A DNA stretch of 36,474 bases, taken from a virus. The position numbers were made by a program, and so were the translations under genes. The stretch covers positions 1 to 36,474 of the IMG/VR virus record IMGVR_UViG_3300029820_000012, one strand, 5' to 3'. The stretch's first letter is position 1. The number at the start of each line of letters is the position of its first letter. The notes under the pieces were generated by a model. The model had not been told where the DNA came from and did not search any database. It worked only from the letters and a program-made list of their open reading frames with translations. Below are positions 4,668 to 36,474 of this stretch, piece after piece.

Positions 4668-4816
4668 CCCGGGCGCTGCTGGCCTCGGCCGTCGTGATGG
4701 ACGCCGCCGGCTGGATGTGCGCCGTGCAGGGGGCCTACGGCCTCGCGCGGGTGTGCTTCTCGGCCGCGATTCCGTTCATCGTTGCGTGGGTGGTCGGGTC
4801 GCTATGGGTGAGCTAG
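4664..4816 (+). CDS. Small hydrophobic protein (50 aa)
   Basis: ATGA overlap. Two hydrophobic segments. Low certainty. Confidence 0.35.
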   Translation: MTRALLASAVVMDAAGWMCAVQGAYGLARVCFSAAIPFIVAWVVGSLWVS

Positions 4817-6153: not shown

Positions 6154-6586
6154 TGGCGATCAGGCCGTGGCCGTAGGTCCCGCCGAAAAAGCCCGCGACG
6201 GCTCCCGAGACCACGCTGAAGAGCGCCACGAGGTAGTCGTGCCTGCGCCCGCCACGGACGTTCTCGCGCTCGATGCGCGCCGCCTCGTCGCGGTCGCGGA
6301 ACCAGCAGCGCCCCTCCGAGGTCAGCTCGCCGAATTCCGCCCGCGGGCCGGGCACCGGCTGCGGCGCGATCAGGCCCTTTTCCGCAAGCGCCTCGTAGAC
6401 GGCGCGCTCCCTGCCGTATCCCGGCGAGTACCTGCATTCCTCGTTTCCGTGCGCGTCGGTGGCCGCCGCCTCGGACAGCTCGCCGTAGAGCCTGCGGGCT
6501 ATGTGCTCGTCCACCGACCCGCCGTTCTCCTCAATCTCGAGGAGCCTCCTGAGATAGGACTGCTCCTCGCTCGTCAATTCGACCAT
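6128..6586 (-). CDS. Hypothetical protein with C-terminal TM anchor (152 aa)
   Basis: GC3-biased minus frame. GGAGG SD. C-terminal hydrophobic helix. Confidence 0.55.
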   Translation of the reverse strand: MVELTSEEQSYLRRLLEIEENGGSVDEHIARRLYGELSEAAATDAHGNEECRYSPGYGRERAVYEALAEKGLIAPQPVPGPRAEFGELTSEGRCWFRDRDEAARIERENVRGGRRHDYLVALFSVVSGAVAGFFGGTYGHGLIAIIRSWLGL

Positions 6587-6621
6587 CCGGACCTCCGCCC
6601 CGATCGCTATGGCAGTTCATG

Positions 6622-6638
6622 CGAGGCCTTGGGCCTCG
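6622..6638. promoter_or_regulatory. Palindrome CGAGGCC-TTG-GGCCTCG in the divergent promoter region upstream of the ParB-like gene
   Basis: Read directly. 7-bp arms, 3-nt spacer. Confidence 0.4.
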
Positions 6639-6652
6639 AGACAGGAGGATAC

Positions 6653-7906: not shown

Positions 7907-8255
7907 CGAGAAGAAGGTCAGGGTGACGGTGGAGGCGTGCGGCGAGGCCCGCGCTTTCGAGTGCCGTTGCGCGACGGTCTCGACCGCCAACGGGGACGGC
8001 TCCGGCGACTCTTGCTTCGTGGGCGCGACCAGCACCAGGGACCTGTTCGCGCTCGCCTGCGAGTGCACCGACGCGCTCTGCGTGGCCTTCAGCCAGGCGG
8101 GCGTCCCGGACAGGAACGCGCGCAAGCTCGTGCTCATAGCCGCCCTCGGCGCCAATCCCCATGGGCACGCCGACAGCATCCAGACCACCGACCTGGACGC
8201 GCGCAGGGAGATCCGCGACATGGCTGCGGAGCTTGGCGTCGATGCCGACATCTAG
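7899..8255 (+). CDS. Hypothetical Cys-rich protein (118 aa)
   Basis: GGAGGAGAAGG SD. In-frame ATG overlapping the ParB-like stop. Confidence 0.5.
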   Translation: MSSEKKVRVTVEACGEARAFECRCATVSTANGDGSGDSCFVGATSTRDLFALACECTDALCVAFSQAGVPDRNARKLVLIAALGANPHGHADSIQTTDLDARREIRDMAAELGVDADI

Positions 8256-9435
8256 CGAGCGCCGGGCGGTCGTGCAGCGCGGGGCGGACGGCCGCTGGTT
8301 CGCCCGCCCCTACATGGGCACCGACCGCGCCACGGGCAGGCGGATCAGGCCGTATAAGTCCTGGGACGGGGGCCTGACCCGCGAACAGGCCCAGGCCGAG
8401 TGCGACAAATGGGTCGCGACCTATATCCCCTCCTCGGCGCAGGACAGCTCCAAGCGCCTGTCATCGATGCTCGTGACCTATGTCTCTGACCCGGTGACCG
8501 GCCTGTCCGACAACTCGGTCGCAGCCTACCGCAGCGTGATCAGGACGATGGTGGAGCCGACCATCGGGCGCATCCCCTACGACCAGCTGCAGCCGTGGGA
8601 CGTGTCGGCGGCGTACCGCACGCTGCTCGCGCCCAGGACGGGCAAGGGGCTGTCGCCCAAGACCGTGCGGCTCATGCACTCGCTACTCAAGGTCGCGTAC
8701 GGGAAGTGGCGCCATGTCATCGGCTACAACGTCATGCTCGAGGTCCCGGCCCCCAAGGTGAAACCAGGGGAGCCGTTCGCCCTGTCCGAGCTCGATGCGG
8801 ACGGGCTGTCCCGCGCGATGGTGTCCGCCATGTCCTCGCACGACGCCACGGGCGCCAACATCGCCCGGCGCACCGAGGCCATGGCTGTCTTCCTCGCGCT
8901 CCACACGGGCATGCGGGTCGGGGAGGTCTGCGGCCTGCAGCGCCGCGACTGGCGCCGCTCACTGCACGACATCCACGTAGCCGGGCAGGCCGTCGAGAAG
9001 CCCAGCCTGCACAGGCAGCCCTTCACCAAGGGCAAGCGCTCGCGGAACGTCTCGATCCCGCCGGCGGTCGAGGCGCAGCTGGAGCGCCACCTGGCGTGGC
9101 AGGACACGTGGCTCGTCCGCAAGGGGCCGGCCGCGCCCCTGATCACCTTCGGGCCCGCGGGAGGGCTCGCGAGGCCGTCGACCGTGACGGCCCGGTTCAA
9201 GGCGATCGCGCGCGAGCTCGAGCTGCCCGGGGAGACGGTCTTCCACACGCTTCGGCACACGCACGCCACGTGGCTGCTCACGCACGGGTGGGACATGCGC
9301 CTGGTGCAGGAGCGCCTGGGGCACGCGAACGTCAAGACGACGCTCGAGATATACGGCTCGGTGCTGCCGGGCCGCGACAGGGAGGCCGCCGCGGCCTTCA
9401 CCGATTCGATCTACGGAGGTGATATGGATGGATAA
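8242..9435 (+). CDS. Second full-length tyrosine integrase (arm-binding N-domain plus catalytic domain)
   Basis: N-term RRAVVQRGADGRWFARPYMGTDRATGRRIRPYKSWDGGLTREQAQAECDKW is the integrase arm-binding pattern. C-term RVGEVCGLQRRDW...FHTLRHTHATWLL...LGHANVKTTLEIYGSVLP has the R..HxxR..Y box. Confidence 0.85.
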   Translation: MPTSSERRAVVQRGADGRWFARPYMGTDRATGRRIRPYKSWDGGLTREQAQAECDKWVATYIPSSAQDSSKRLSSMLVTYVSDPVTGLSDNSVAAYRSVIRTMVEPTIGRIPYDQLQPWDVSAAYRTLLAPRTGKGLSPKTVRLMHSLLKVAYGKWRHVIGYNVMLEVPAPKVKPGEPFALSELDADGLSRAMVSAMSSHDATGANIARRTEAMAVFLALHTGMRVGEVCGLQRRDWRRSLHDIHVAGQAVEKPSLHRQPFTKGKRSRNVSIPPAVEAQLERHLAWQDTWLVRKGPAAPLITFGPAGGLARPSTVTARFKAIARELELPGETVFHTLRHTHATWLLTHGWDMRLVQERLGHANVKTTLEIYGSVLPGRDREAAAAFTDSIYGGDMDG

Positions 9436-23523: not shown

Positions 23524-26478
23524 TTGCCCACCGTGGCCAAAGGCTCGGTGCTGCTGACACCGAAGTTCGACAACCTCACGTCATCGATCAGCCGCCAGCT
23601 CGACGGCGCCTTCGCGGGCAGCTCGGGCATCGGCTCCAGGGCCGGAGCCAAGACGGGCGCGGCCTTCAGCGCCGGCCTCGGGGCGAAGGCCGGCGCCGTC
23701 GCCGGCATCGTCTCGGCAGTCACCGGCAAGGCCTTCACGGCCATCAGCAACTCGCTCGACTCGGCAATCAGCCGCGTCGACACCATGAACAACTTCCCCA
23801 AGGTCATGGCGGGCCTGGGATACGGGGCCGACGCGGCGACCTCGTCCATCGACAAGATGAGCGACCACCTCACCGGGCTGCCCACGCGCCTGGACGCCAT
23901 GACCTCGTCGGTCCAGAAGATCGTGCCGACCGTCAAGGATGTCGGCAAGGCGACCGACATCATGCTCGCCTTCAACGACGCGCTGCTCGCGGGCGGCGCG
24001 TCGACGCAGGTTCAGGAGGCGGCGCTCGAGCAGTTCTGCCAGGTGCTAGCCAAGGGCAAGCCCGAGATGGAGGACTGGCGCTCGATCGTCACGGCGATGC
24101 CGGGCCAGATGGACCAGGTCGCCAAGTCGATGCTCGGGCCGACCGCGAGCACGAACGACCTCTACGACGCGCTCAAGACCGGCAAGGTGAGCGTCGAGGA
24201 CCTCGAGGACGCGTTCATATCCCTCGACAGGAACGGGTACGCGGGCTTCGACTCCTTCGCCCAGCAGGCAAAGACCGGCACGGCGGGCATCGCCACGTCC
24301 GTGGCCAACCTGAGGAACTCCGTGACCAAGGCGGTCGCGGCGTGCATCGATGCCATCGGCGTCGAGAACATCACGGCGCCCATCCAGGCGGCGACCGGGC
24401 TCATCAAGGGCGCGGGCGACATCGCCGCCGGCGCCATCACGTCCGTCAAGGATACCGTGTCCGACGTTGGCGGCTACGTCGAGCGGTTCATCGGCATGCT
24501 CGAGCGCCTCGGCAGGTCCTCGGACAGCTTCTCGACGCTCGCGTATAACGCGGACGTGCTCATGCGGGCGGTCCGCGGCGCCCTCGAGCCCGCGGCGGAT
24601 GCCGTCGGCAGGGTCATAGACCGCGTCTCCGAGCTCGCCGGCCAGACGTTCACCGCCGCCTGGCCGGAGGACCTCGCGCTCGGAGTCAAGGGTGCCGCCG
24701 ACGCGATCAACGGGCTCGTGGACGGGGCCGGGGGCATCGAGGCGGTCTGCTCCACGATCAGGGGCCCCGTCTCCGGGCTCGTGGGCGATTTCGACGGTGC
24801 CGCGAACAGCGTCCTGTCCTTTGTCGACTCCTCGAGCGGGATGTCGGCAATCGCCGATGCGGTCGGCAGGTTCGTAGGCTCTACTGCGGGCCTGGCCGCC
24901 GCCAAGCTCGCCATCTCGGGCGTGACGGGCGGCATCGACAAGTTCAAGACCCTGCAGGCCGCGCTCAAGGGCGTGGCGAAGGTGGCCGGTTCGGGGATCG
25001 GCGAAGTCGGCGCGCTCGCGTCGATGGTTTCCGGTGAGGCGGCTGGCGCCTTCACCTCGGCGTCCGGCCCCGTCCGCGGACTGCTCTCGGCCATCGGCTC
25101 GGGCGCTGGCGCCTTCACGACGCTCGTCGGCCCGATAGCCGTCGTGGTCGCCGCCGTCGCCGCGCTCGCCGCCGGCTTCGGCTACATGATGACGACAAAC
25201 GAGGGCTTCCGCTCGTCGGTCATGTCTGCCGCCTCGGCGGTCGCATCCGGCCTGGCGCCCGCCTTCTCGGCCGTCGCCTCGGCGGTGGCATCGGTCATGC
25301 CGACCCTCGTCTCCGCGTTCGCCGCGGTGGCCTCGGTAGTCACCGGGCAGCTGCTTCCCGCTCTCGGCAACATCGCCCTCGCGCTGCTGCAGCTGCTCGC
25401 CGCCGTCGCCCCCGTCGTCGGGCAGATCATCGCCGCCGTCGCGCCGGTCGCGGCGCAGATAATCCAGCTTCTCGTCCAGGTCGCCGGCGTCATCATGGGC
25501 GTGCTCGTGCTGGCGGTCAACGCCATCGCCGCAGTCGTGCAGGCCGTTTGGCCCGTCGTCCAGGCGGCGTTCACCGTCGCCTGCGCCGCGATCTCGGCGC
25601 TCATCTCGACGGTATGGCCCGCCATCCAGCTGGTCATCACGACCGCGATGCAGGTCATCAGCGCAGTCATCGGCACCGTCCTCGCCGCCATCAACGGCGA
25701 CTGGGAGGGCGTGTGGGCGGGCATCCAGTCGATCGCCGAGATCGTGTGGCACGCCATCCAGACCATCGTCAACGCCGCGATAGGTGTCGTGTCGTCGGTC
25801 ATCAGCTCGGTGCTGGGCACCATCAGCGGCGTCTGGTCGAGCACATGGGGCGCCATCAAGGGCGCGTTCTCCTCCATCTGGGAGGGCATCAAGGGCGCCG
25901 CCCAGAGCGGCATCGACTCCGTCTACACCACGGTCACCGGCATCAAGGACAAGATCACCGGCTTCTTCGCCGGCGCGGGCTCCTGGCTCGTCGAGTCCGG
26001 CAAGGCCATCCTCAACGGCCTCAAGTCCGGCATCGAGAGCGCGGTCGGCGCCGTCACGTCGTCGGTTTCCGGAGCGGTCGAGAGGATCCGCGGCCTGTTC
26101 CCGTTCTCGCCGGCGAAATGGGGCCCGTTCAGCGGCCACGGCTACACGACCTACTCCGGCCGCGCCCTCATGGGCGACTTCGGAGAGAGCATCGTCGCCG
26201 CGTCCGCCGGCACCGCGGCGATGGCGTCCAAGGCGCTCGCCCGCGTGGAGGACGTATTCGACGTCTCCCCGGTCTCGTTCGCGGCGGCCGACGCCGCCGG
26301 CGCGCGGTCGGTGGCGCTCGGCGCGGCCGCCCCCGCCGGCCTCGGCATCGTGGAGCGAGGAGACACCTACTACATCAGCATCGACGGCTCCCTCCTCGAG
26401 GTCGACGAGCGCATCGCGCACGCCCTCAAGGAGCTCATCGCCGAGGTCAAGCGCTCGTCCAGGTCAAGGAGGGGGTAG
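23524..26478 (+). CDS. Tail tape measure protein
   Basis: 984 aa. Central region ...DKMSDHLTGLPTRLDAMTSSVQKIVPTVKDVGKATDIMLAFNDALLAGGAS...LAKGKPEMEDWRSIVTAMPGQ... is the tape-measure core. Ala/Gly-rich helical repeats. TTG start. Confidence 0.85.
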   Translation: MPTVAKGSVLLTPKFDNLTSSISRQLDGAFAGSSGIGSRAGAKTGAAFSAGLGAKAGAVAGIVSAVTGKAFTAISNSLDSAISRVDTMNNFPKVMAGLGYGADAATSSIDKMSDHLTGLPTRLDAMTSSVQKIVPTVKDVGKATDIMLAFNDALLAGGASTQVQEAALEQFCQVLAKGKPEMEDWRSIVTAMPGQMDQVAKSMLGPTASTNDLYDALKTGKVSVEDLEDAFISLDRNGYAGFDSFAQQAKTGTAGIATSVANLRNSVTKAVAACIDAIGVENITAPIQAATGLIKGAGDIAAGAITSVKDTVSDVGGYVERFIGMLERLGRSSDSFSTLAYNADVLMRAVRGALEPAADAVGRVIDRVSELAGQTFTAAWPEDLALGVKGAADAINGLVDGAGGIEAVCSTIRGPVSGLVGDFDGAANSVLSFVDSSSGMSAIADAVGRFVGSTAGLAAAKLAISGVTGGIDKFKTLQAALKGVAKVAGSGIGEVGALASMVSGEAAGAFTSASGPVRGLLSAIGSGAGAFTTLVGPIAVVVAAVAALAAGFGYMMTTNEGFRSSVMSAASAVASGLAPAFSAVASAVASVMPTLVSAFAAVASVVTGQLLPALGNIALALLQLLAAVAPVVGQIIAAVAPVAAQIIQLLVQVAGVIMGVLVLAVNAIAAVVQAVWPVVQAAFTVACAAISALISTVWPAIQLVITTAMQVISAVIGTVLAAINGDWEGVWAGIQSIAEIVWHAIQTIVNAAIGVVSSVISSVLGTISGVWSSTWGAIKGAFSSIWEGIKGAAQSGIDSVYTTVTGIKDKITGFFAGAGSWLVESGKAILNGLKSGIESAVGAVTSSVSGAVERIRGLFPFSPAKWGPFSGHGYTTYSGRALMGDFGESIVAASAGTAAMASKALARVEDVFDVSPVSFAAADAAGARSVALGAAAPAGLGIVERGDTYYISIDGSLLEVDERIAHALKELIAEVKRSSRSRRG

Positions 26479-26481
26479 GGC

Positions 26482-28809
26482 ATGGCATACGCGGAGACAA
26501 AGCGAAACGGCGTAAAGTACTACGGGGTCTCCCTTTCGACCTGGGTCGAGAACATCAGCGACTCGACCGCGCGAATCCACTGGAGCGCCTCGGTCGACTT
26601 CGGACCGTGGAACATGTGGGGCGTCCGCCTCCATGTGTCGGTGGGCGGGGTGGAACGCGCCAGCGGCGCCGGCGTGACGGTCCAGAACTACAAGCAGGCG
26701 GTCAGCCTGAGCGGCTACACAGACGCCGCGCGTAATGATAACGACTACAGCGTCTGGTGCTCCGCCTGGACGTCCAGCGAGACTGTAAACGGGTACGGCG
26801 GAGTCACCGCGACTACCTCGTGCGGTGAGAACGCCGGTATCCCCAAGGTCCCCGCCTACAAGCCAGACGCGCCGACCGACCTCATCGTCACGGAGTCGAC
26901 CGATGGGACGACAGCCCTCGAGTGGGTCAACCACCCGGACGACGGCGCGCGCAAGTACTACGACGGCATCAACGTCTACCGCCATACGGATGACGGGCCG
27001 CCCGAGAACCCCTATAACCAGGCGACGATCTCCAACTGGCGCGACGTGACGACGAGCGCCAACCACTTCTACGACTACGACGTCAGGGCGCGCTGGCGCG
27101 GCGGCACCTCCGAAATGTCGAACAAGGTGCGTGTGTTCAAGACCCCCGCGCCCCCGGCATCCGTCTCGCTCGCGCGCTCCGGTGACGGCGAGGTCTCGCT
27201 GGTCGTGCGGGGTCCCGACATCCCGTCCTGGATAAGCGGCTTCAAGGTCCGCGCGACTTCGGACGGCGGTAAGACCTTCATCTCCCGCAGCCTCGCCGCC
27301 GACAAGCAGGAGCCGGGCGTCTGGTCCATGACCGACCCGGCTGCCATGGCCGGAGAGAGTATCGTCTACGAGGTCTGCACCTACCGCGACAGGCCCGTAG
27401 CGGGCGCCGGCGACACCATATGCTCGGCATGGACGGCGTCCAACGCCGTGGCGACAATCTGTCCGCCGTACGCGCCGGCCGTCTCGGGGCTGGCTCCGGC
27501 CTATCCGACCGGCTCGACAGCGTCTGTGACATGGGTGCGCAGCCACCCGGACGGAACGGCGCAGACCGCGGCGCAGGTCGAGCTGGTCAAGCCTGGCGGC
27601 GCCGTCGCGGTGACCGACATCAACGGCCCCGCCTCGACGGCTCGCCTGAAGCTTCCCGACAAGGGGGCATACCGCCTGCGCGTCCGCACCAAGGGCTCGG
27701 ACCCGTCATGGGGCGCCTGGAGCCAGTACTCGTCGTTCACCGTCGCAGACCCTCCGCAGGCGTTCTTCACCACGCCGGCACAGGACGGCGACACGGTCGT
27801 CGAGCTCCCGCTGCCCATCGCGTGGAGCGTCGCGGACGAGACCGGGGTCGCGTCCCAGCGGCTGAAGGTGACGTCCCCGTCGGGAACGGTGCTGGACGTC
27901 AACGTGGGCGAGTCCGCGCGCTCGCACTCCGTGTCGACGGGGCTGAGCAACAAGACGACCTACACCCTCGAGCTGACCGTCCGCGGCGGCTCAGGGCTCT
28001 CGGCGAGCTTCACCAGGACCGTGGCGACCGACTGGCTCGTCCCCGCCACCCCGATCGTCAACATCGACTACTCGGACGACTACGCCGCGACCGTCACCGT
28101 TCGCGACGGCGTCTCGGAGTACGCGGTCAGCGGCCACAAGCTCCGCGGACCCATGTCGAGAACGGGCCGCGGAACCATCAGGCTCAACGGGGGAGCCTCG
28201 GTCAAGGGGACGAAGCTCCTGCTCCACAGCCTCCCGCCGTGCCAGTCCTTCGACCTCATGCGCGTCCTGCCGGACGGCTCGCGAAGGACGCTCGCGACGG
28301 GCCTCAAGCAGGGACAGAGCGTCATCGACCGGCTGCCGCCGCTCAACGTGGCGTTCACCTACGTCGCGGTCGGGCACGCCGCGAGCGGCACGGTCTCGAC
28401 GACCGAGGTCGAGACATCGTGCCGCTGCCGCGGCTACGCCTTCAACTTCGACGCGGGCGCGACCTCGGTCGTCGCCGGCACCGTCGGGGCGGGCGGGCCG
28501 CCGGGGTACTCGCGCGGGTACGACCACGGGGTCACCCAGTTCCACTTCTTCGGCTCCGCCGGCGGCCTGCCGATGGGCTACCCGTCCAACAAGATCGATA
28601 TTTCGGAGAGCTGGGACTTCGCCGTTCCGGCAGACGAGATCGGACGCGTTGCGGACCTGTTCCGCGACCATCCCCACTGCTGGGCGCGCACCCACGACGG
28701 CGACCGCGCTTTCGTGCAGCTGACGCCGACCATCACGCGCTCGTCCCCGAGGTGGTACAAGGTGAGCCTCGCGACCAAGCGCGAGGTCTGGAGGGAGCCC
28801 AATGCCTAG
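26482..28809 (+). CDS. Distal tail (Dit)-like protein, enlarged (775 aa) with multiple fibronectin-III-like repeats
   Basis: Position after the tape measure gene. Repeated P-x-A-P-T/S...SxxVxW segments. AAGGAGGGGG SD. Confidence 0.5.
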   Translation: MAYAETKRNGVKYYGVSLSTWVENISDSTARIHWSASVDFGPWNMWGVRLHVSVGGVERASGAGVTVQNYKQAVSLSGYTDAARNDNDYSVWCSAWTSSETVNGYGGVTATTSCGENAGIPKVPAYKPDAPTDLIVTESTDGTTALEWVNHPDDGARKYYDGINVYRHTDDGPPENPYNQATISNWRDVTTSANHFYDYDVRARWRGGTSEMSNKVRVFKTPAPPASVSLARSGDGEVSLVVRGPDIPSWISGFKVRATSDGGKTFISRSLAADKQEPGVWSMTDPAAMAGESIVYEVCTYRDRPVAGAGDTICSAWTASNAVATICPPYAPAVSGLAPAYPTGSTASVTWVRSHPDGTAQTAAQVELVKPGGAVAVTDINGPASTARLKLPDKGAYRLRVRTKGSDPSWGAWSQYSSFTVADPPQAFFTTPAQDGDTVVELPLPIAWSVADETGVASQRLKVTSPSGTVLDVNVGESARSHSVSTGLSNKTTYTLELTVRGGSGLSASFTRTVATDWLVPATPIVNIDYSDDYAATVTVRDGVSEYAVSGHKLRGPMSRTGRGTIRLNGGASVKGTKLLLHSLPPCQSFDLMRVLPDGSRRTLATGLKQGQSVIDRLPPLNVAFTYVAVGHAASGTVSTTEVETSCRCRGYAFNFDAGATSVVAGTVGAGGPPGYSRGYDHGVTQFHFFGSAGGLPMGYPSNKIDISESWDFAVPADEIGRVADLFRDHPHCWARTHDGDRAFVQLTPTITRSSPRWYKVSLATKREVWREPNA

Positions 28810-30400
28810 GGACAGCTTCTGGCTCGAGCCCTTCTCGGCCGAGTACCGCTTCGTGCGGGTCGATCTCGCGACCGGGCTGGAGGGCGCCGAGCTCGCCAAC
28901 ATCACAGGCGGGAGCGTGGAGCGCAACCAGGACACGGCTATCTTCGAGCAGGGGAGCGTCAAGTATGTCGGGGCCCTCGACATGGGCACCGACTTGCTGC
29001 GCGTGTACCTCGAGGCATCGTCCCCCTGGACGGGCGAGAGTCGCACGGAGGCACTGGGGACCTTCTACGTCTCCACGCCGAAGGTGAGCGCGGACGGCGC
29101 CGTCATCACCGGCAGTGCCGACATCTACGGCAGGCTCAGGGCGCTCGCCAAGGACGACTTCGACGGGCCGTACGTCATCCCCGCCGGCACCAACATGGTC
29201 GACGCCGCCAGGAAGATCGCGGAGGGCTGCGGCCTCGAGGTCGTCGCGGACGAGAGCGACGCCGCGCTCACCTCGACGTGGGTGTTCGGCATCTCGACGA
29301 CATCGTCCGACGAGGACCGTGCGGACTCCAAGCTTGCGGCCGTCAACCGCCTGCTCGAAGCCGCCGGCTTCCTCGCGGCGCACACCGACCCGTATGGGCG
29401 CGTGCTGTTCCGCCGCTATGTGGAACCCGACCAGAGGCCGATAGCCTTCGATTATATCGAGGGACCGAACTGCCGCATTACGCTCAGGCTCGACTACGAG
29501 CACGACACCTTCAGCGTCGCCAACGTCATCCACGTCGACTTCTCCTCGCAGGACATCTCCGTGCGCGGCACAGCGGTGGATGATGACCCCAACAGCCCGT
29601 ACTCGACCGTGAGCACCGGGCGACGCGAGACCGCGCGATACGACCTGTCCGACCTGCCCACGAGCATCACGGAGGACTCGAACGTCCTCTCCGGCGCCGC
29701 CGAGATGCAGATCGGCTCGGGGACCAAGGAGAGCGGGACCTACCGCCAGAGCGACAGTCACGGCTCCATCTCCACCGTGTACGTGCCTGACTCCCCGCAG
29801 ACCGCCGTCTTCTTCGGCCTCAAGGTCGCGAGCGACGGGGGTCGCATCGGCTTCTGCCAGGACAAGGTCGGCTCCCTCAAGAAGGGCGAGCCGATCACCC
29901 AGAGCCTGTGGATCAAGGGGACGAAGGGTGCCCGCGTGAGCCTGCAGGCGTGGTGGGTGCCGTCCCTGTCGGCAGGGCCGCGCCTGCATTACGAGACGCT
30001 CACCGGCGAGTGGCAGCGCCTCGTCGCGACCGAGACCCCAGCGGACAACTACAGCGACGTCTCGGCGGGCTACGTGTACCTCGAGGCGGGCGGCGAGGCC
30101 GTGGTGGTCGCCGACAAGGTCGAGGAGGGCGTCGCGGCGACGCCCTGGCCGCACGATGCCCTCCAGGCGGCGGCGGACACCAAAGCCGCGACGCTGCTCA
30201 ACGACAGCAGGTCCGTCATCCAGAGGGTGAACTGCTCCTGCATATACGACCAGGTGTCGGTCTACGACGCGGGTAATCTTCGACTGCCGGCGGCGGGCCT
30301 GGACCTCGACCACGTCTGCATCAGGACGCAGACGATTAACTTTGATGACGGGTGCCCGATGGATATCGAGGCCCGCAAGTTCGAGAGGAGCGCCGCATGA
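28802..30400 (+). CDS. Tail-associated (Tal-like) baseplate/minor structural protein
   Basis: 532 aa. Position after the Dit-like gene. Overlapping start. Confidence 0.5.
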   Translation: MPRDSFWLEPFSAEYRFVRVDLATGLEGAELANITGGSVERNQDTAIFEQGSVKYVGALDMGTDLLRVYLEASSPWTGESRTEALGTFYVSTPKVSADGAVITGSADIYGRLRALAKDDFDGPYVIPAGTNMVDAARKIAEGCGLEVVADESDAALTSTWVFGISTTSSDEDRADSKLAAVNRLLEAAGFLAAHTDPYGRVLFRRYVEPDQRPIAFDYIEGPNCRITLRLDYEHDTFSVANVIHVDFSSQDISVRGTAVDDDPNSPYSTVSTGRRETARYDLSDLPTSITEDSNVLSGAAEMQIGSGTKESGTYRQSDSHGSISTVYVPDSPQTAVFFGLKVASDGGRIGFCQDKVGSLKKGEPITQSLWIKGTKGARVSLQAWWVPSLSAGPRLHYETLTGEWQRLVATETPADNYSDVSAGYVYLEAGGEAVVVADKVEEGVAATPWPHDALQAAADTKAATLLNDSRSVIQRVNCSCIYDQVSVYDAGNLRLPAAGLDLDHVCIRTQTINFDDGCPMDIEARKFERSAA

Positions 30401-30630
30401 GCATGGCTTCCGACCTGCTTGAGGCCATCGCGCCGCCGGACAGGCCCACGGCGCAGATCGCCTACGGCTATGTCACGGCGGTGTCGGGCGGCACGCTCTC
30501 GGTACTCGTGCGCGGTGGCGTGGCCGAGGGCGTGCACATGACGACGTCCTGCTCGGCTGCCAAGGTCGGGCAGAGGGTCGTCCTCATCGGGTCGCCGCCC
30601 GTGTGGACGGCGATCGGGGTACTCGCATAG
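30397..30630 (+). CDS. Small structural protein (77 aa)
   Basis: ATGA overlap. Beta-rich sequence. Confidence 0.4.
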   Translation: MSMASDLLEAIAPPDRPTAQIAYGYVTAVSGGTLSVLVRGGVAEGVHMTTSCSAAKVGQRVVLIGSPPVWTAIGVLA

Positions 30631-30659
30631 GAACGTTATCGAGAAAGGAGCTCCCGCCA

Positions 30660-31085
30660 ATGTCTGACAGCACGGGGGACGCTACGTACGAGATCAAGGT
30701 GGCCGACGGCGGCTATATCGACGGCCTCACCGTCACCGGGGACGACGGAACGTCCGCCGACTACACCTTCCGCTATGAGAACGAGGCCGAGCTCGAGGCG
30801 AGCCGAATCGCCGCCGACGAGGCCGCCGCGCGCGCCAACGCCGCCGCTGCGGCGGCGAAGCCGTACTACATCCAGCAGGCGGAGCCCGAGCGCACGAAGC
30901 GCGTCGACGGGATGCTCTGGGTGAAGGTCAACGAGTCGAAGAAGTCGGTCGACGCGCTCGCTCGTTGGGACGCCGGCAAGACGGGCAACGCGATCTTCCC
31001 CGGCGAGCAGACCGTCCCGGGAAACAGGACCGTGGTCGACATCCCCGGTGCGTGGACGCTTTTCGACGACCACAGAATCGCTTAG
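30660..31085 (+). CDS. Hypothetical tail-fibre-associated protein (141 aa)
   Basis: AAAGGAG SD. Ala-rich central coiled coil. Confidence 0.45.
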   Translation: MSDSTGDATYEIKVADGGYIDGLTVTGDDGTSADYTFRYENEAELEASRIAADEAAARANAAAAAAKPYYIQQAEPERTKRVDGMLWVKVNESKKSVDALARWDAGKTGNAIFPGEQTVPGNRTVVDIPGAWTLFDDHRIA

Positions 31086-31097
31086 AGAGGAAAGAAC

Positions 31098-31493
31098 ATG
31101 GCGGGTATCTTCAGCTACGCCAAGACGCTTTGGCAGGACGGCGTCACGGCGATCACCGCTGCGCGACTCAACCACATCGAGCAGGGCATCTCCGATGCCG
31201 CGGACAGCATCAAGACCCTCGGGGATTCCGTATCCCAAATCGGAAACATCGAGTCGAGGCAGGTGTTCTGGCAGTCCCAATCGGAGACCACGGACCTGAT
31301 GCTCAAGAGGACGTGGACCTCCATCAAAACGGTCACGCCCACCATCCTGTGGACCGTGGCCGATTCGAATGGCCAGGCTATGTGCGGAATCGCGTACAAG
31401 CACTCTGACAAATACGGCGCCTTCATCGAGTTCGGGTATTCCCGAGGATTCGCGTCATGGAAGCTGTTAGACGGCTTGTGGATCAAGGAGTAG
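31098..31493 (+). CDS. Tail fibre / receptor-binding protein N-terminal (constant) module; ends at the TAG embedded in repeat R1
   Basis: N-term MAGIFSYAKTLWQDGVTAITAARLNHIEQGI resembles the conserved N-terminus of siphovirus fibre/BppU-type proteins. GAGAGGAAAG SD. GC drops to about 50% from this point. Confidence 0.55.
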   Translation: MAGIFSYAKTLWQDGVTAITAARLNHIEQGISDAADSIKTLGDSVSQIGNIESRQVFWQSQSETTDLMLKRTWTSIKTVTPTILWTVADSNGQAMCGIAYKHSDKYGAFIEFGYSRGFASWKLLDGLWIKE

Positions 31494-31506
31494 CCTTCCG
31501 TATCCC
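31491..31506 (+). repeat. Shufflon-like repeat R1 (TAGCCTTCCGTATCCC)
   Basis: Read directly. Confidence 0.85.
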
Positions 31507-31739
31507 TGCAATGGTGGGGCACATCGGTTTCGTTCAATCTTGAGACGGCAAAGACGTTTGCAATCGTCGTGATCGGCGCGACTGATACCCCGATAAAAGG
31601 CCCGTTCATGGTTTGGTTCAGCTCGGCAAAACCAAGCAGCACGGCGCTGCCAGACGGTGTAACCATCTCCAATGATGGAAGAATGGTCACCGTCTCATAC
31701 CGCAGCGATGTGACATTCGTAGTGCAGAAATATGTCTGC
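31494..31739 (+). other. In-frame fibre-tip cassette 1 (82 codons, open from R1 to the TAG of R2, same frame as the 31098 gene)
   Basis: No stop for 82 codons in the frame set by the repeat. Ends exactly at R2's TAG. Confidence 0.6.
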
Positions 31740-31755
31740 TAGTTTTCCGTATCCC
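31740..31755 (+). repeat. Shufflon-like repeat R2 (TAGTTTTCCGTATCCC)
   Basis: Read directly. 249 bp (83 codons) from R1. Confidence 0.85.
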
Positions 31756-32051
31756 AAGCTCGCGGCGATTGTTATTCGAGCGACATGAATGACATCACCA
31801 AACCAGGAACATACCGTGTCGGAAATAGCGTCACGCTGAATAAGCCGCCTAATGCATACGGATGGGGCTTCTTGCTGGTGTTCACACCCAGCGACAACTA
31901 CGCAGTGCAGGTCTATGTCCCGGAAGGCATAACTGGAAATTTATATTGGCGCAGTATTTGGAGAGGGGATGCCGATCAATGGAGTGTCGTCAAAGGCAAC
32001 GTACTGGCTTCAGCCGACTCGTCCGACCAGACGGACGCAGAGCTTAGCTAG
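31743..32051 (+). other. In-frame cassette 2 (102 codons from R2; contains the ATG-initiated 88-aa track ORF 31785-32051); ends at TAG 32049-32051
   Basis: Open in frame 0 from R2. Convergent with minus-strand cassette 3 at the junction TAGgCTA. Confidence 0.55.
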
Positions 32052-32055
32052 GCTA

Positions 32056-32244
32056 CCTCGACAGCGCGACCTTTGTTGATGCACCAGTCGCGCTGTTCGT
32101 GTAGCTGAACTTGTCGGCAGAAAAACCGAGCGTCACGACCGAATCGTCGGACATCGTAACCTCGACGATCACATCGGTCGTGTTGTTGTTCGACTGCCTG
32201 AAGCGCACGTTTTTCACTATAGCAGTCACGTATTTATCGCAACG
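32056..32244 (-). other. Minus-strand cassette 3 (63 codons from R3 to the junction stop)
   Basis: Open in the SVS frame of R3. Confidence 0.55.
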
Positions 32245-32259
32245 GGATACGGAATGCTA
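32244..32259 (-). repeat. Repeat R3 (minus orientation: TAGCATTCCGTATCCC)
   Basis: Read directly. Confidence 0.85.
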
Positions 32260-32448
32260 TTTAGTCCAGAGCGTCTTGAGATTTCCAGTAGACCCGTACT
32301 GCAATTTGATGCCTTCTGCTTTCGAGATGGTGACGTAAAGCGATTTGCCGTCCTTTAAACAGAATTGCACTTGGATATAAGTGTCCTCGCCCGATCCCCA
32401 CGAGCCACACGAGATGGAGATGACGTCTCCCCAGAAGGTCGGCACTCG
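32260..32448 (-). other. Minus-strand cassette 4 (63 codons, R4 to TAG of R3; track ORF 32257-32445)
   Basis: Open. Ends at R3's TAG. Confidence 0.55.
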
Positions 32449-32463
32449 GGATACGGAATGCTA
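32448..32463 (-). repeat. Repeat R4 (TAGCATTCCGTATCCC)
   Basis: Read directly. 204 bp from R3. Confidence 0.85.
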
Positions 32464-32646
32464 TGCGCTGTAGATATCCGTGTGCGTTTCGCCAACGCGC
32501 TTGTACACGTTTATCTTCTTGGATGATGCCTTCTCGGTTGGGAACGATGCTATGTACTCACCATCGCTGCATTTGAAGACAATGCCAAAGTCATCGTTTG
32601 TAATTGACAAAGAGACAACTTCCGCCTTGTTTATTAGCTTAACCCG
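32464..32646 (-). other. Minus-strand cassette 5 (61 codons, R5 to TAG of R4; no internal ATG)
   Basis: Open. No methionine codon in frame. Confidence 0.55.
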
Positions 32647-32661
32647 GGATACGGAAAACTA
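32646..32661 (-). repeat. Repeat R5 (TAGTTTTCCGTATCCC)
   Basis: Read directly. 198 bp from R4. Confidence 0.85.
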
Positions 32662-32931
32662 TGCAACCGATACGGAGCATACGTCACCAATCGGTGTCAT
32701 GACTAATCCTGAAGACCAGTTTGTAGTTTTTATTACGGCAGTCTTATTGTTCGGGAATGTGATGTTAAGGCTCTGACCTGCAAGAATCTTACTCGTCGAG
32801 TCCATACAATTCAGGAATATGGCGCTCGGGGCGCCGTTGTTGTCGATAATCAGGAGTGCCGACGAATGGTTGGCGGATTCAAACGAAATCGTCACGCTGC
32901 TTTTGTCGCCTACGGTAAACGTTTTCAACGG
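32662..32931 (-). other. Minus-strand cassette 6 (90 codons, R6 to TAG of R5; part of track ORF 32659-32985)
   Basis: Open. Upstream open frame is antisense to the recombinase 3' end and starts only at a TTG. Confidence 0.5.
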
Positions 32932-32943
32932 GGATACGGAATC
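32931..32943 (-). repeat. Repeat R6, terminal variant (GGTGATTCCGTATCCC; no TAG), abutting the recombinase stop codon
   Basis: Read directly. 285 bp from R5. Confidence 0.8.
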
Positions 32944-33817
32944 ACCACTCCATAGCAGCCGAGTACGAATCGCTCGCCCTGGCAACGACCGTCCTGAAGC
33001 TCTGTAGATAGTGCGACATGGCGGTATTAACAGTCGAATGCCCCAGCGCCACGGCTATGTCCTCGATGGCGGCTCCATGCTCAAGCGATATGGTCGCCCA
33101 GCTGTGGCGCAGGCAGGTCATAGGCACGTGCGGCAAGCTGAACCGCTTGCAGAACGCGCGGAACTTTCGAGCCACGGTGTTCGGATCCAGTTGGCAAAGC
33201 CTGCCGGACCTACGCGCGCCCCTGATGGCGCGGAGCCTCTCGAGGGCAAAACGAGGTAGCTTGAGTCGCCTGTCTGAGAGTTTGGTTTTGCACCCGGTCT
33301 CGATGACATCGCCCTTTACGACATGCAGCCCGCGCCGTACGTGCACCCAGCCGCTCCTCCAATCGATATCCTCAACGCGGACGGCACACGCCTCGCAGCG
33401 CCGCAGGCCGAGCGTGGCGCCCAGGAGCACCGCCGGCTCGAAAGGCTGTCCGACGATCGCCCTAAGGGTCGTTCGCTCCTGTTCGGCCGTCAACGTAGGG
33501 CGGCGCGCGGTTGGTTTCTGCGGCAGCTCCACACCCTGGGTTACATCCCAAATGCGGAGCTGGTGGCGCCTCAGTATCCATCGGTAAATCTGGCGGAACG
33601 TCTTGTACGCCTTCTCCGCCGCGCCTGCCCTGTCGAACTCATCGATCCATTCCTGGACCTGCTCAAAAGTAATCGAATCTATCTCGCGATTGCCCCATTG
33701 GGAGATGAGGTGGCAGCGTATCGCGCTCTCGTAGCCCTCGAGGGTGGTGGCGCGCAGGCGCTTTCGCTTGTCGGCCATGTACTCGGCGGCGGCATCTTTG
33801 AACAGCATTTCGATCAT
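32942..33817 (-). CDS. Tyrosine site-specific recombinase (Rci/Xer-like, no arm-binding domain); candidate shufflon invertase
   Basis: C-term LRHSWATISLEHGAAIEDIAVALGHSTVNTAMSHY carries the HxxR...H...Y box. Preferred start is ATG 33817 with TAGGAG SD. Track start 33955 is a GTG upstream of a 14-bp inverted repeat. Confidence 0.75.
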   Translation of the reverse strand: MIEMLFKDAAAEYMADKRKRLRATTLEGYESAIRCHLISQWGNREIDSITFEQVQEWIDEFDRAGAAEKAYKTFRQIYRWILRRHQLRIWDVTQGVELPQKPTARRPTLTAEQERTTLRAIVGQPFEPAVLLGATLGLRRCEACAVRVEDIDWRSGWVHVRRGLHVVKGDVIETGCKTKLSDRRLKLPRFALERLRAIRGARRSGRLCQLDPNTVARKFRAFCKRFSLPHVPMTCLRHSWATISLEHGAAIEDIAVALGHSTVNTAMSHYLQSFRTVVARASDSYSAAMEW

Positions 33818-33827
33818 CCAATCTCCT

Positions 33828-33879
33828 AAAAATCCCAGACGCATTGCATGGTACGCCGTGCCGAGGCGTCTGGGATTTT
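33828..33879. promoter_or_regulatory. 14-bp perfect inverted repeat AAAATCCCAGACGC ... GCGTCTGGGATTTT directly upstream of the recombinase SD
   Basis: Read directly. Confidence 0.6.
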
Positions 33880-33945
33880 CAGGGGATTCGACAAGGCTCG
33901 TAGCCCTGAAATCAGCGGCAAATAGCGGAAGAAAGGAGGGCAAGC

Positions 33946-34284
33946 GTGGCATCACTGGCGCAGATTGTCGTGACGACGGCCGTGTCCTGTCTGGTATCGG
34001 CGATGGTCGCGGCGGGCGTCGCGACCGTCAGGGCCCAGGGGCGCAAGGCGTCGGAGCGGGCGGAGCGCGAGCGCGAGGCCAGCGAGGCACTCAAAGCGGG
34101 GATGCGGGCGCTGCTCTGGGCTGAGCTGCAGCGCATCCATGAGAGGGCCATGGCGCGGGGCGGTCTGACCGTCGAGGAGCGCCGGCATCTTGAGAGTGTC
34201 TACGCCGCCTACCACGGGCTGGGCGGCAACGGCACGGGAACGCGTCTCTACGAGGACGCGATGAGGCAGCCCGTATTGGATTAG
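33946..34284 (+). CDS. BhlA/UviB-like membrane protein (N-terminal TM plus coiled coil); lysis-associated
   Basis: GTG start 5 nt after AAAGGAGGG. TM helix IVVTTAVSCLVSAMVAAGVATV. Confidence 0.5.
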   Translation: MASLAQIVVTTAVSCLVSAMVAAGVATVRAQGRKASERAEREREASEALKAGMRALLWAELQRIHERAMARGGLTVEERRHLESVYAAYHGLGGNGTGTRLYEDAMRQPVLD

Positions 34285-34296
34285 GAGGAGGAATCA

Positions 34297-34527
34297 ATGA
34301 CCAAAGATGAGATCGTCAAGAAGCTGACCAGCAGAAAGTTCTGGCTGTGCACTGCGGCCTTCCTCGGGTCCGTTGCGGCGAGCGTTGCCGGACTTGCGAC
34401 TGACAACCAGGCGGTCGTGGCCATCGGCACCGTTTGCGGGGTCGCAAGCGCTGCCATCTACGCCGCTGCAGAGCAGGCCGTGGACGCCGCGCGACTCAAG
34501 TCGGGAGGCGAGCATGACGGAGACTAA
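34297..34527 (+). CDS. Holin (two TM helices)
   Basis: 76 aa. TM1 FWLCTAAFLGSVAASVAGL and TM2 AVVAIGTVCGVASAAIYAAA. Charged C-terminus. GGAGGAGG SD. Confidence 0.65.
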   Translation: MTKDEIVKKLTSRKFWLCTAAFLGSVAASVAGLATDNQAVVAIGTVCGVASAAIYAAAEQAVDAARLKSGGEHDGD

Positions 34528-35656
34528 GGCCGAGCCCAAGCGCAAGCTGCCGATGCGCAGCGTTTTCGCCATCGTCCTCGCGCTCGTCGCGGCCCTCGCC
34601 GCCCCGTGCGGAGCCGAGGCGTACCAGAGCGTCGACAAGTACGTGAGCGGCGGCCACGGGTACCTCAATGCGAGCTACCTGGTCATTCACGAGACCGCGA
34701 ACCCCGGCGCTTCTGCCTACAACCACACTTTGTTGTGGTCGCGTGACGACACCTATGCCGTCCACCACGTGATGGAGCTTGACGGGTCAACCGTGTATAA
34801 CACGGTGCCTGAGGGCCGCTTGTGCTGGCACGTGGGCAACGGCAACGGCTACACGATCGGCATCGAGTTGGCCCACGCCACCAATGCCTCCGACTTCGCG
34901 AAGCAGTGGTCCGAGGCCGTCAAATGGGCCGGAGATGAGTTGCGCGCCCGCGGGTGGGACACCTCGAGACTCTTGAGCCACTACGAGGCGGCTCAGCGCT
35001 GGGGCGGTTCCGACCACACCGACCCGAATGGCTATTTCGCCCAGTACGGTAAGAGCTGGTGGGAGTTCAAGCAGGCCGTCGCCGCCTATTTGGGCTCCGG
35101 CTACGTGGCGCCCATTGCGCCGACCAACGGCAACGGCGGGACCTATGAGGGGGGCGGCTACAGCTCACCGGCGGCCAGCTTCCCGAAATCGACTGGTGCC
35201 TGCGTGAGCGTCCACTATGCGCTGCACAACCGTGGCGGCGGCTGGAACTCCGAGGTAACGAACTTCGACGACGCCAGCGAGAACGGCTTCGCGGGCATGC
35301 CTTACGGCTCCCATGACATGCTGATCGCATGGGCCGATACCGGTACCCTACGCTATCGCGTCCATACCCGCGAATCCGGATGGCTCGACTGGGTGCAGGC
35401 CGCATCCTACGGCGACAGCGTGAACGGCATGGCGGGTGTCTGGGGGCAGATCATCGATGGTGTCCAGATGTACTACGTCACGCCTGGCGGTGACTACCGC
35501 CAGGTCTACTACCGCTCTCAGGATGTCGATCATGCCGGATGGTGGGGCGAGGTCTGCGACGACGGAACCACGTATGGCGGAGACGATTACGCCGGTTATT
35601 ACGGTCACGCGCTCGATCGCCTGCAGGTCTACATCTCCGACGGGACTCGCCGATGA
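34514..35656 (+). CDS. Endolysin: N-acetylmuramoyl-L-alanine amidase (amidase_2/PGRP) with N-terminal signal/SAR-like segment and C-terminal aromatic wall-binding repeats
   Basis: [22 protein letters not shown]...[37 protein letters not shown]...[17 protein letters not shown] is the amidase_2 Zn-binding pattern. N-term [31 protein letters not shown]. Confidence 0.8.
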
Positions 35657-35742
35657 TCGCGCTGGCGTTCGTGCTCGGCTCGCTCTTCGGCGGTATCGTG
35701 GCGACAATAGGGCTCTGCATCGTGAGTGTTAATCGTCAATAG
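35653..35742 (+). CDS. 29-aa TM peptide ([29 protein letters not shown]), lysis accessory candidate
   Basis: ATGA overlap with the endolysin stop. Single TM helix. Followed by a strong terminator. Confidence 0.4.
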
Positions 35743-35751
35743 ACGGCTAAA

Positions 35752-35782
35752 CCCCTCCCCGGTATGTGCCGGGGAGGGTTTT
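35752..35782 (+). terminator. Intrinsic terminator (CCCCTCCCCGG/CCGGGGAGGG plus TTTT) ending the late/lysis operon
   Basis: Read directly. Confidence 0.75.
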
Positions 35783-35922
35783 ATGCATGACTTAATATCC
35801 GTTAATAACCGTTCCACAATGCAGTTTCAGCGCGTACGGCGCTGGCGAGAACATCGTTACCTGCAAGTATGCAGATACAGCGCGTGCCAAAACGTCACGT
35901 TCAAGACTCTTAATCCCAAGGT

Positions 35923-35950
35923 CCAGGGTTCGACCCCCTGACGGCCCACC
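35923..35950 (+). other. tRNA 3'-end-like segment (T-arm CAGGG-TTCGACC-CCCTG, acceptor ACGGCCC, discriminator A); candidate attP core
   Basis: Read directly. No matching 5' acceptor strand upstream, so it is a partial tRNA. Lies just downstream of the int 3' end and is followed by a terminator. Confidence 0.5.
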
Positions 35951-35962
35951 CAAAGAACGCAC

Positions 35963-35995
35963 AGGTCAGCGCCTCGGCGCTGGCCTTTTTTGTTT
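35963..35995 (+). terminator. Hairpin GGTCAGCGCC/GGCGCTGGCC followed by TTTTTTGTTTT
   Basis: Read directly. Confidence 0.6.
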
Positions 35996-36039
35996 TCCTC
36001 TATGCCAAATCATAACCGTCCGTTACCGTTCGCGTTTTA

Positions 36040-36076
36040 CGCCCCCTGCCGTTTATGCGCAGCAGGGGGCGTTTTA
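36040..36076 (+). terminator. Hairpin CGCCCCCTGC/GCAGGGGGCG followed by TTTTA
   Basis: Read directly. 10-bp perfect stem. Confidence 0.5.
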
Positions 36077-36111
36077 TGCATTTTGCAGGTAGCGGACCTA
36101 GAAAATGCGTT

Positions 36112-36474
36112 TTAGAGCGTCTCGGCGTTGCGACCGGTGCCATTAAAACCGCCCTCCGCGCCTCCGCCCTCGACGATCTGCAGGGCTCGTCCGACCTGCC
36201 TGGCGGCCTTCTCGCGCTCCGCCAGACCCGGTTTGATGTAATGGCGGTAATCTGTCCCCAGGTCCGTATGGCCGTGCAAATCCATGATGCTCAGGGGGTC
36301 GACCTCGGTCGCCGCCATGATGGTCTCGGACGTGTGGCGCAGGGCCTTGGGCGGGATATACCGCAGGTCATGGCGTGCGCACATGCGCCGCCAGGCGCGC
36401 ACGAGGTTGTCGCCGCGCATGTTCACGATGCGCTGGCCGCTCCAGTCGCGCACCTGCTCCGTAACCGAAGTCCC
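36112..36474 (-). CDS. int: Tyrosine integrase, C-terminal catalytic part (continues from 1-975 across the circular junction)
   Basis: Translation ...LRHTSETIMAATEVDPLSIMDLHGHTDLGTDYRHYIKPG carries the HxxR...H...Y tyrosine-recombinase box. Stop at 36112-36114. Confidence 0.85.
   Translation of the reverse strand, partial: GTSVTEQVRDWSGQRIVNMRGDNLVRAWRRMCARHDLRYIPPKALRHTSETIMAATEVDPLSIMDLHGHTDLGTDYRHYIKPGLAEREKAARQVGRALQIVEGGGAEGGFNGTGRNAETL

Follow-up and report, generated by a model that had tools for sequence, protein, structure and literature searches.

Rin shufflons were first described in Bifidobacterium prophages (Mavrich et al. 2018, Sci Rep, PMC6109161). There, an armless tyrosine invertase (rin) accompanies a constant region (Rc) of 168 amino acids (aa), variable cassettes (Rv) of 95-100 aa, and an 11-base-pair (bp) site, rix (TTCCCTAACCC), present once in the gene and once just after it, and read-level evidence of inversion was reported. 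The same system, with the repeat 5'-ttccgtat-3', occurs in Eggerthella lenta clade 1 prophages (Microorganisms 2022, PMC8778435). Here, we analyze a locus at positions 31098-33891 of the IMG/VR virus record IMGVR_UViG_3300029820_000012, whose full stretch of 36,474 bases is called the window below. The locus combines the gene for a small putative tail-tip protein, a set of alternative cassettes separated by short repeats, and an adjacent tyrosine recombinase gene, and we give a probability of roughly 0.85 to its being a Rin-type shufflon that swaps the C-terminal domain of that protein by means of the recombinase. The homology of its recombinase, together with a rix core, TTCCGTAT, that equals the published ttccgtat, makes the locus a member of the published Rin shufflon family. 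The first-pass annotation of this DNA had proposed a multiple-inversion shufflon for a tail-protein tip, and that proposal is borne out by inversions at the repeats in two related loci, by natural fusion proteins that change sequence at GDSVS, and by the tail-gene context. Its suggestion that such a system would be unusual does not stand, as the system is already in print, ttccgtat core included.

Sites and cassettes of the array

The 10-mer TCCGTATCCC has seven exact copies in the window, all within 31227-32940 and none elsewhere, against a random expectation, by arithmetic, of ~0.07 for an exact 10-mer in 36 kb. With at most one mismatch allowed, there are 11 matches, compared with a mean of 2.6 and a maximum of 6 after shuffling. 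Three copies lie on the plus strand (31227, 31497, and 31746) and four on the minus strand (32244, 32448, 32646, and 32931). Six of these had been annotated earlier with all coordinates and orientations correct; the seventh, at 31227, had been missed. This copy falls within the 131-aa gene, and the earlier statement that all repeats are downstream of the N-terminal gene is therefore incorrect. The features of the locus are as follows.

31098-31226, plus strand: Rc, the constant 43 codons (MAGIFSYAKTLWQDGVTAITAARLNHIEQGISDAADSIKTLGD) encoding the N-terminus of the putative tail-tip protein
31225-31236, plus strand: rix R0, ATTCCGTATCCC, inside the expressed 131-aa gene; fusion site
31227-31493, plus strand: cassette P0, 88 codons, currently in frame behind Rc and part of the expressed 131-aa protein
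31491-31506, plus strand: rix R1, TAGCCTTCCGTATCCC, with its repeat core at 31497, 3 nucleotides (nt) past the stop of the 131-aa gene
31497-31742, plus strand: cassette P1, silent, 81 codons; close homologues P0017 and P0037 are Rc fusions elsewhere
31740-31755, plus strand: rix R2, TAGTTTTCCGTATCCC
31746-32051, plus strand: cassette P2, silent, 101 codons; predicted knob-like beta domain; homologue P0022 is an Rc fusion
32053-32253, minus strand: cassette M0, silent, 66 codons; its cassette family recurs in other loci
32244-32259, minus strand: rix R3
32257-32457, minus strand: cassette M1, silent, 66 codons, no methionine codon; present in 13 related loci
32448-32463, minus strand: rix R4
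32461-32655, minus strand: cassette M2, silent, 64 codons, no methionine codon
32646-32661, minus strand: rix R5
32659-32940, minus strand: cassette M3, silent, 93 codons; homologues P0021 and P0027 are Rc fusions
32931-32946, minus strand: rix R6, GGTGATTCCGTATCCC, fixed outer edge of the invertible region
32942-33817, minus strand: rin, 291-aa tyrosine recombinase without an arm-binding domain; its stop codon (32942-32944) abuts R6
33817-33891, no strand assigned: inverted repeat AAAATCCCAGACGC-N23-GCGTCTGGGATTTT, directly upstream of rin and covering its ribosome-binding site

Five of the copies (31497, 31746, 32244, 32448, and 32646) are preceded by TAG-NN-T. R6 has GGTGAT instead, its left flank holding the TGA stop codon of rin, which agrees with the earlier description of this copy as TAG-less and touching the recombinase stop. 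The spacings between R1 and R6 are 249, 498, 204, 198, and 285 bp, every one divisible by 3. R0 reads GAT TCC GTA TCC CAA (D-S-V-S-Q) in frame with the gene that contains it and is close to palindromic (GGGAT-TCCGT-ATCCC). Because R1 lies downstream of the stop codon, no fusion is possible there, and the fusion site is the copy at 31227. Because R0 lies inside the 131-aa open reading frame (ORF; 31098-31493), the constant part comprises only codons 1-43, and the remainder of the ORF, which the first-pass annotation had counted as part of a constant fibre N-terminus, is itself a cassette.

Seven cassettes, one expressed and six silent, tile 31227-32940 with 3-nt spacers and range from 64 to 101 codons. 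In every cassette, the frame fixed by the repeat (S-V-S) stays open. Five of them run up to the TAG that precedes the following site, whereas P2 and M0 terminate back to back at a convergent TAGgCTA (32049-32055). For seven ORFs with 559 codons in total, the chance of finding every one open in a prescribed frame is ~2e-12 (arithmetic), and the rix repeats and open cassettes together are far beyond chance. Most of this organization had been read correctly from the start, including the distances in multiples of three, the open S-V-S frames, the TAG ends and the convergence point, the lack of a methionine codon in the fifth cassette (M2, to which M1 can be added), and the lower guanine-plus-cytosine (GC) content of the array. 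The latter is 48-53% over 31501-33000 versus ~68% in the rest of the window, with rin intermediate at 58-63%; judged from composition, cassettes may have circulated among phages whose hosts differ in base composition.

The core TTCCGTAT is exact at all seven sites and has one further exact copy in the window, at 4041. A logo built from 355 distinct sites reads TAG-n-A-T-TCCGTAT-C-C-C, with no conservation beyond those positions. Distant rin homologues are associated with other sites, namely TTCCCTATCCC in locus L064, TTCCCTAACCC in the Bifidobacterium type, and TTCCTTAGGCC in locus L032, and the general form across rin homologues is TTCC-NNA-NNCC. This pattern suggests an asymmetric overlap region (about TTCCGTA) that would set the orientation of a site and that appears to be flanked on the right by a well-conserved arm (TCCC) and on the left by a poorly conserved one. 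A pseudo-site, CTCCGTATCG, is located at 32668-32677 on the minus strand, near the 3' end of M3, where it encodes a second S-V-S (…CSVSVA). It is also kept in the M3 homologues P0021 and P0027, and recombination there would leave just five residues, S-V-S-V-A, after Rc.

In the mechanism that we propose, the 43-residue Rc helix presumably anchors the protein to the tail and is followed by one of seven C-terminal domains. Each cassette would begin at the 12-bp site ATTCCGTATCCC, reading S-V-S, and would carry its TAG 3 nt ahead of the next site. Rin would synapse two oppositely oriented sites, one from R0-R2 and one from R3-R6, and exchange strands inside the invariant asymmetric core, and inversion of the DNA between the two sites would place a new cassette in frame behind Rc. 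Since most segments are flanked by direct sites, only inversions that span the convergence point are possible. A simulation that permits inversion between any pair of opposite sites yields 1440 arrangements and reaches all seven alleles; a single inversion expresses M0, M1, M2, or M3, and two inversions express P1 or P2. A phage population would then carry mixed receptor-binding tips, hedging against variation of the host surface. We infer that Rin is the acting enzyme, that inversion takes place in this phage, that the protein binds the receptor, and that deletion between direct sites is avoided.

Rearrangements and fusions among relatives

The comparison with related phages, in which the first-pass annotation had recommended seeking the repeat core, covered 67 related loci from viral and genome collections, most of them from Collinsella and some from Eggerthella, Slackia, and Olsenella. 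Arrays in these relatives hold 2-13 cassettes, and the cassettes fall into 153 sequence clusters in about 60 loci. In more than 50 loci, only a few bases separate the first site from the rin stop codon, and this site shares the orientation of rin, while the last site has the opposite orientation and is located inside the Rc gene. All but one of the 47 loci with at least three sites show a single orientation switch, a rin-like block followed by an opposite block, which is the pattern predicted by an inversion-only system. The sole exception, L030 (IMGVR_UViG_3300045988_112471, sites 3496-5245), has the orientations + - + + - - and therefore two convergent double-ended segments, as in R64-type shufflons.

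Rearrangement is seen directly in loci L012 and L014, which come from two different metagenomes. Their DNA is 100% identical and their cassette order differs: L012 reads +7+44-45-24-13-46 and L014 reads +46+13+24+7+44-45, exactly two inversions apart. At the sites, the aligned blocks share 10-14 bp, and their flanks differ, which confines the crossover to ATTCCGTATC. Similarly, L042 and L047 have ten cassettes in common in differing order and orientation.

A search with the 131-aa product, itself found as an exact match in a public protein collection, returned more than 30 proteins of 90-143 aa with unrelated C-termini after a common N-terminus. Their N-termini are ~96-100% identical to Rc and end in ...SIKTLGDSVS, and the sequence switches exactly at GDSVS. 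Five of the six silent cassettes (P1, P2, M1, M2, and M3) have homologues among these C-termini; an M1-type cassette, for instance, is joined to a variant Rc in P0041-P0044. The exact predicted Rc+M2 protein (P0002) is encoded in an ENA assembly, locus L071, in which window positions 30911-31236 are joined to inverted 32656-32448, i.e., R0 to R5. One fusion homologue carries the NCBI label 'pyocin knob domain-containing protein'.

Two types of constant region can be distinguished by comparing L019-L023, L025, L028, L033, L057, L059, and L061 with the window, L002, L011, L013, L016, and others. The short type, a helix of 43-47 aa (MA..W.D...ITAA.LN..E.GI...LGD), belongs to Collinsella-type loci, and the long type, of 156-171 aa and ending in ...LWRVPLDGI...LATLGD, to Eggerthella- and Slackia-type loci. 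Both join their cassettes at one point, (L)G(D/E)|SVS.

Cassettes also appear in different company in different phages. When the window shufflon (31150-33000) is aligned with its relatives (loci L001-L072), 112 of 126 homology-block ends lie within 12 bp of a rix site, versus 9.5% expected. Block ends at rix and cassette families beside different neighbours indicate that cassettes have been exchanged between phages as units. A more tentative idea, which we regard as doubtful, is that rix and Rin form an integron-like exchange platform between phages. Recombination at direct rix sites, or between rix sites of co-resident phages, would transfer whole cassettes; a large shared pool and arrays of 2-13 cassettes would result, and a conserved hairpin over the rin ribosome-binding site would throttle the activity and keep it rare.

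Recombinase, structural models, and rival explanations

Rin contains two Pfam domains only, Phage_int_SAM_3 and Phage_integrase, that is, a SAM-like core-binding domain and a catalytic domain, in agreement with its original description as a tyrosine recombinase without an arm-binding domain. Its closest solved or curated relatives are XerC-like proteins, XerA, and XerD, and alignment places R139, R237, H260, and Y270 in the expected catalytic positions. Rin is 93% identical to a Collinsella aerofaciens recombinase (e.g., in NZ_JAQLEM010000033) and 80% identical to WP_158574133.1 from an Eggerthella sp. AM16-19 locus with the same repeats. With B. longum WP_080997367.1, which is encoded beside TTCCCTAACCC arrays, it shares 40% identity across 273 aa (E 4e-62). 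The assignment of homology rests on WP_158574133.1 and WP_080997367.1 rather than on the published Bb423phi1 and E. lenta sequences themselves; the two proteins come from Bifidobacterium and Eggerthella, the genera in which Rin systems have been published.

The inverted repeat before rin has 26-nt arms, with core arms at 33829-33842 and 33866-33879, and folds on the rin strand with -52.8 kcal/mol (z -5.8). Its arms are invariant and its loop is variable in ~50 distinct relatives whose Rin proteins are 59-100% identical, and an analogous element, AAAACCCACACG...CGTGTGGGTTTT, precedes Bifidobacterium-type rin genes. Judging from its position and conservation, the hairpin is probably an attenuator, terminator, or insulator that limits rin expression. 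The arms were also considered as a Rin-binding operator, an idea that arose from the ATCCC common to rix and the inverted repeat here and the AACCC common to both in the Bifidobacterium type. This was rejected, as the arms do not covary with the rix sequence: L031, L032, and L066 have a different rix (e.g., TTCCTTAGGCC) and yet keep the AAAAACCCA-type repeat. A sigma-70 promoter scan of 30300-34400 found nothing.

The swapped domains appear to be alternative C-termini of a putative tail receptor-binding protein, as indicated by the natural fusions, the genomic position, sequence comparison, and structural models. P2 matches the PHROG tail fiber family phrog_16472 (E 9e-7), and Rc has weak PHROG matches to head-fiber and minor-tail N-termini. 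In the model of Rc-P2, Rc forms one helix (residues 2-45) followed by a small beta domain; in that of Rc-P0, it forms two helices (2-12 and 21-48). All eight of the best Foldseek matches of Rc-P2 in the PDB are phage or pyocin tail-fibre or baseplate chains, including the phi812 baseplate, R1 and R2 pyocin fibres, the 80alpha baseplate, the phi11 host-recognition device, and the Pa193 fibre, with probabilities of 0.97-1.00 and root-mean-square deviations of 2.2-2.9 Å for seven of the eight (Pa193: 4.9 Å). The best fold matches of Rc-P0, with weak E-values, are C-terminal domains of phage K gp144 and the same phi812 baseplate chain. In these models, P2 and P0 thus resemble phage or pyocin receptor-binding knobs, so the structure prediction that the first-pass annotation had called for gave knob-like models for both.

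The genomic surroundings are those of a phage tail. Upstream, in order, are genes for a 984-aa tape-measure protein (23524-26478), a 775-aa protein, a 532-aa tail protein (phrog_1887), and 77-aa and 141-aa proteins, followed by the 131-aa gene; beyond the recombinase lie a 112-aa gene, a 76-aa holin-like gene, and a 380-aa Amidase_2 endolysin. Siphovirus receptor-binding genes are usually located between the tail and lysis genes. A 99-bp direct repeat at the termini (1-99 and 36376-36474) identifies the window as a circular assembly, a complete phage genome of ~36.4 kb, and permuted contigs that are 100% identical over the compared stretches occur in several human gut metagenome assemblies. 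The phage was assembled from, among others, run ERR1190944 (PRJEB12124) and is present in the ENA assemblies ERZ27235324 and ERZ1309174. The phage is siphovirus-like, temperate, and from the human gut, and its host is probably Collinsella or a close relative within the Coriobacteriia. It encodes three tyrosine recombinases: the 291-aa Rin, a 424-aa protein (8161-9435, plus strand), and a 412-aa protein across the contig ends (36112-36474 joined to about 1-975, minus strand). The 424-aa gene is preceded by one for a 579-aa protein (6167-7906) with a weak ParB_N match. A megablast search of 26000-36474 against 50,697 GenBank phage records gave no match, and a Bifidobacterium-type locus gave no useful match against the same records.

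A number of observations weigh against a Rin shufflon that is active in this phage and swaps receptor-binding tips. The structural case is built on AlphaFold2 models with predicted local distance difference test (pLDDT) scores of 72-76 from shallow alignments, the Foldseek E-values are weak (0.005-0.3), and Pfam and NCBIfam give no match for Rc, for any cassette, or for the homologue that NCBI calls 'pyocin knob domain-containing'. Only one of the six predicted alternative fusions, Rc+M2, is matched exactly, and L071, which encodes it, was rejected as an isomer of this phage, since it is 97-99% identical and has other neighbouring cassettes, as expected of a relative. The direct repeats within R0-R2 and within R3-R6 mean that an unbiased recombinase would delete cassettes, and the means of avoiding this is not visible in the sequence, a puzzle raised also in PMC6109161. 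Alignment further places a threonine in Rin at the first catalytic histidine position of XerD-like enzymes. Finally, the contigs retrieved with three exact window proteins (Rin, the 141-aa protein encoded upstream, and the product of the P2 ORF) all have the window arrangement, and no flipped isomer of the exact phage was found in 4-5 assemblies from several samples. This single arrangement, the threonine, and the burial of the rin ribosome-binding site in a very stable conserved hairpin could each point to a fossil or locked shufflon in which inversion has been lost or become too rare and the six silent cassettes are dead cargo. Such decay seems unlikely to us: the seven sites are all exact copies and the seven cassettes intact in-frame units, rin retains its full length along with its R, R, H, and Y residues, and the hairpin also occurs in every relative, the L012/L014 pair that did invert among them. 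Moreover, consensus assemblies show the majority form only and leave minority isomers invisible, so that one arrangement neither proves nor excludes activity.

Less probable still is that another agent rearranges the array, be it a different phage tyrosine recombinase, an invertase supplied in trans by the host, or homologous recombination between the short repeats. The window does encode two further tyrosine recombinases (412 and 424 aa), a second inverted Bifidobacterium locus without a flanking recombinase is on record (PMC6109161), and a biochemical test of any Rin is not reported in PMC6109161 or PMC8778435. Against these points stand the strict linkage of rin to the array, with the first site beginning next to the rin stop codon in more than 50 loci, and the pairing of distant rin homologues with the different sites TTCCCTAACCC, TTCCCTATCCC, and TTCCTTAGGCC, as co-evolution of enzyme and site would yield. 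An identity of 12 bp is also too short for RecA-type recombination. The last explanation, to which we assign almost no weight, is that each cassette is a small gene of its own or a paralogous ORF and that the repeat is a shared regulatory or leader element. Gene callers do mark some cassettes as stand-alone ORFs, such as an 88-aa ORF inside P2, and GTG or ATG codons occur near the start of some of them; however, M1 and M2 have no methionine codon at all, the repeat lies in frame inside an expressed gene, and natural proteins change sequence exactly there. This explanation is likewise contradicted by the breakpoints of isomeric relatives at the repeat and by the fusions, and the clustering of homology-block ends around rix speaks against it.

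Relation to known systems

The Rin-type shufflon of the window brings to its family a complete phage genome assembled as a circle. It also shows that Rin shufflons occur commonly among gut Coriobacteriia prophages (Collinsella, Eggerthella, Slackia, and Olsenella). Its novelty is modest and consists of the Collinsella-type host clade, the very short constant region, the many cassettes, and the breadth of the shared pool; what is known of the mechanism is unchanged by this locus. The literature searched mentions no shufflon for Collinsella, and a systematic inversion survey (PMC9881135) mentions neither Collinsella nor Bifidobacterium and has the word 'Actinobacteria' a single time. With a constant region of only 43 aa and seven cassettes (up to 13 in relatives), the locus offers a compact natural scaffold for receptor-binding tip swapping, which could aid host-range assignment or engineering for phages of bacteria with almost no cultured phages.

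Among more distant systems, an integron was rejected because the integron-integrase models score 46 and 22 bits versus cut-offs of 265 and 435, and because the sites are 12-bp in-frame repeats and not attC hairpins; the top NCBIfam matches of Rin, XerA and integron integrase, are far under their cut-offs. The phage invertase systems Min (p15B), Gin (Mu), and Cin (P1) resemble the window in that inversion switches the receptor-binding C-terminal part of a tail fibre, and Min is likewise a multi-segment shufflon. Gin, Cin, Pin, and Min are serine invertases, whereas the enzyme adjacent to the window array is a tyrosine recombinase with 12-bp sites. Inversion of the Gin/Cin/Min type involves Fis-dependent enhancers and 26-bp crossover sites.

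The R64/IncI shufflon (Rci, sfx, and pilV) is similar in having an adjacent tyrosine recombinase, multiple inversions, short asymmetric sites placed in frame, and a constant N-terminus that takes alternative C-termini. The one-sided conservation of R64 sfx sites also resembles that of the window rix. The target differs, being the PilV pilus adhesin in R64 and a phage tail-tip protein here, and most window segments, unlike those of R64, hold one cassette between direct sites and cannot flip alone. Rin shows no detectable relationship to Rci: when 72,556 plasmids were searched by tblastn, only 223 weak matches emerged, each under 60% identity, and the organisms among the matches listed are Bacillus, Ligilactobacillus, Enterococcus, Streptomyces, and similar, with no IncI hosts. 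A PilV target was rejected as well, as the 131-aa protein has no Pfam family and its context is one of phage tail genes.

The closest likenesses are with the two published Rin systems. Prophages integrated at dnaJ2 in Bifidobacterium breve and B. longum (such as Bb423phi1) have the same architecture, with the recombinase at one end and Rc at the other, and share with the window an asymmetric ~11-bp rix heading each Rv, two direct sites, one in the expressed gene and one after it, a homologous recombinase, and a conserved hairpin before rin. The two differ in rix (TTCCCTAACCC versus TTCCGTATCCC in the window), in the length of Rc (168 versus 43 aa), and in the number of alleles, which is five in the Bb423phi1 type, seven in the window, and up to 13 in Collinsella relatives. 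The Bifidobacterium Rv resemble the TP901-1 receptor-binding protein (RBP) head, whereas two window cassettes, as modeled, resemble pyocin or staphylococcal-phage knobs. The E. lenta Rin shufflon, like that of the window, has small tandem Rv between rin and the RBP gene, with sites both in the gene and after its stop codon. Its Rv proteins carry H-type lectin domains (PMC8778435), whereas the window cassettes match no Pfam domain. The constant region of 43 aa found here contrasts with the Rc of 156-171 aa in Eggerthella- and Slackia-type loci, termed a 'much larger gene' in the E. lenta paper (PMC8778435), and the E. lenta system resides in an Eggerthella host, whereas the host of the window phage is probably Collinsella.

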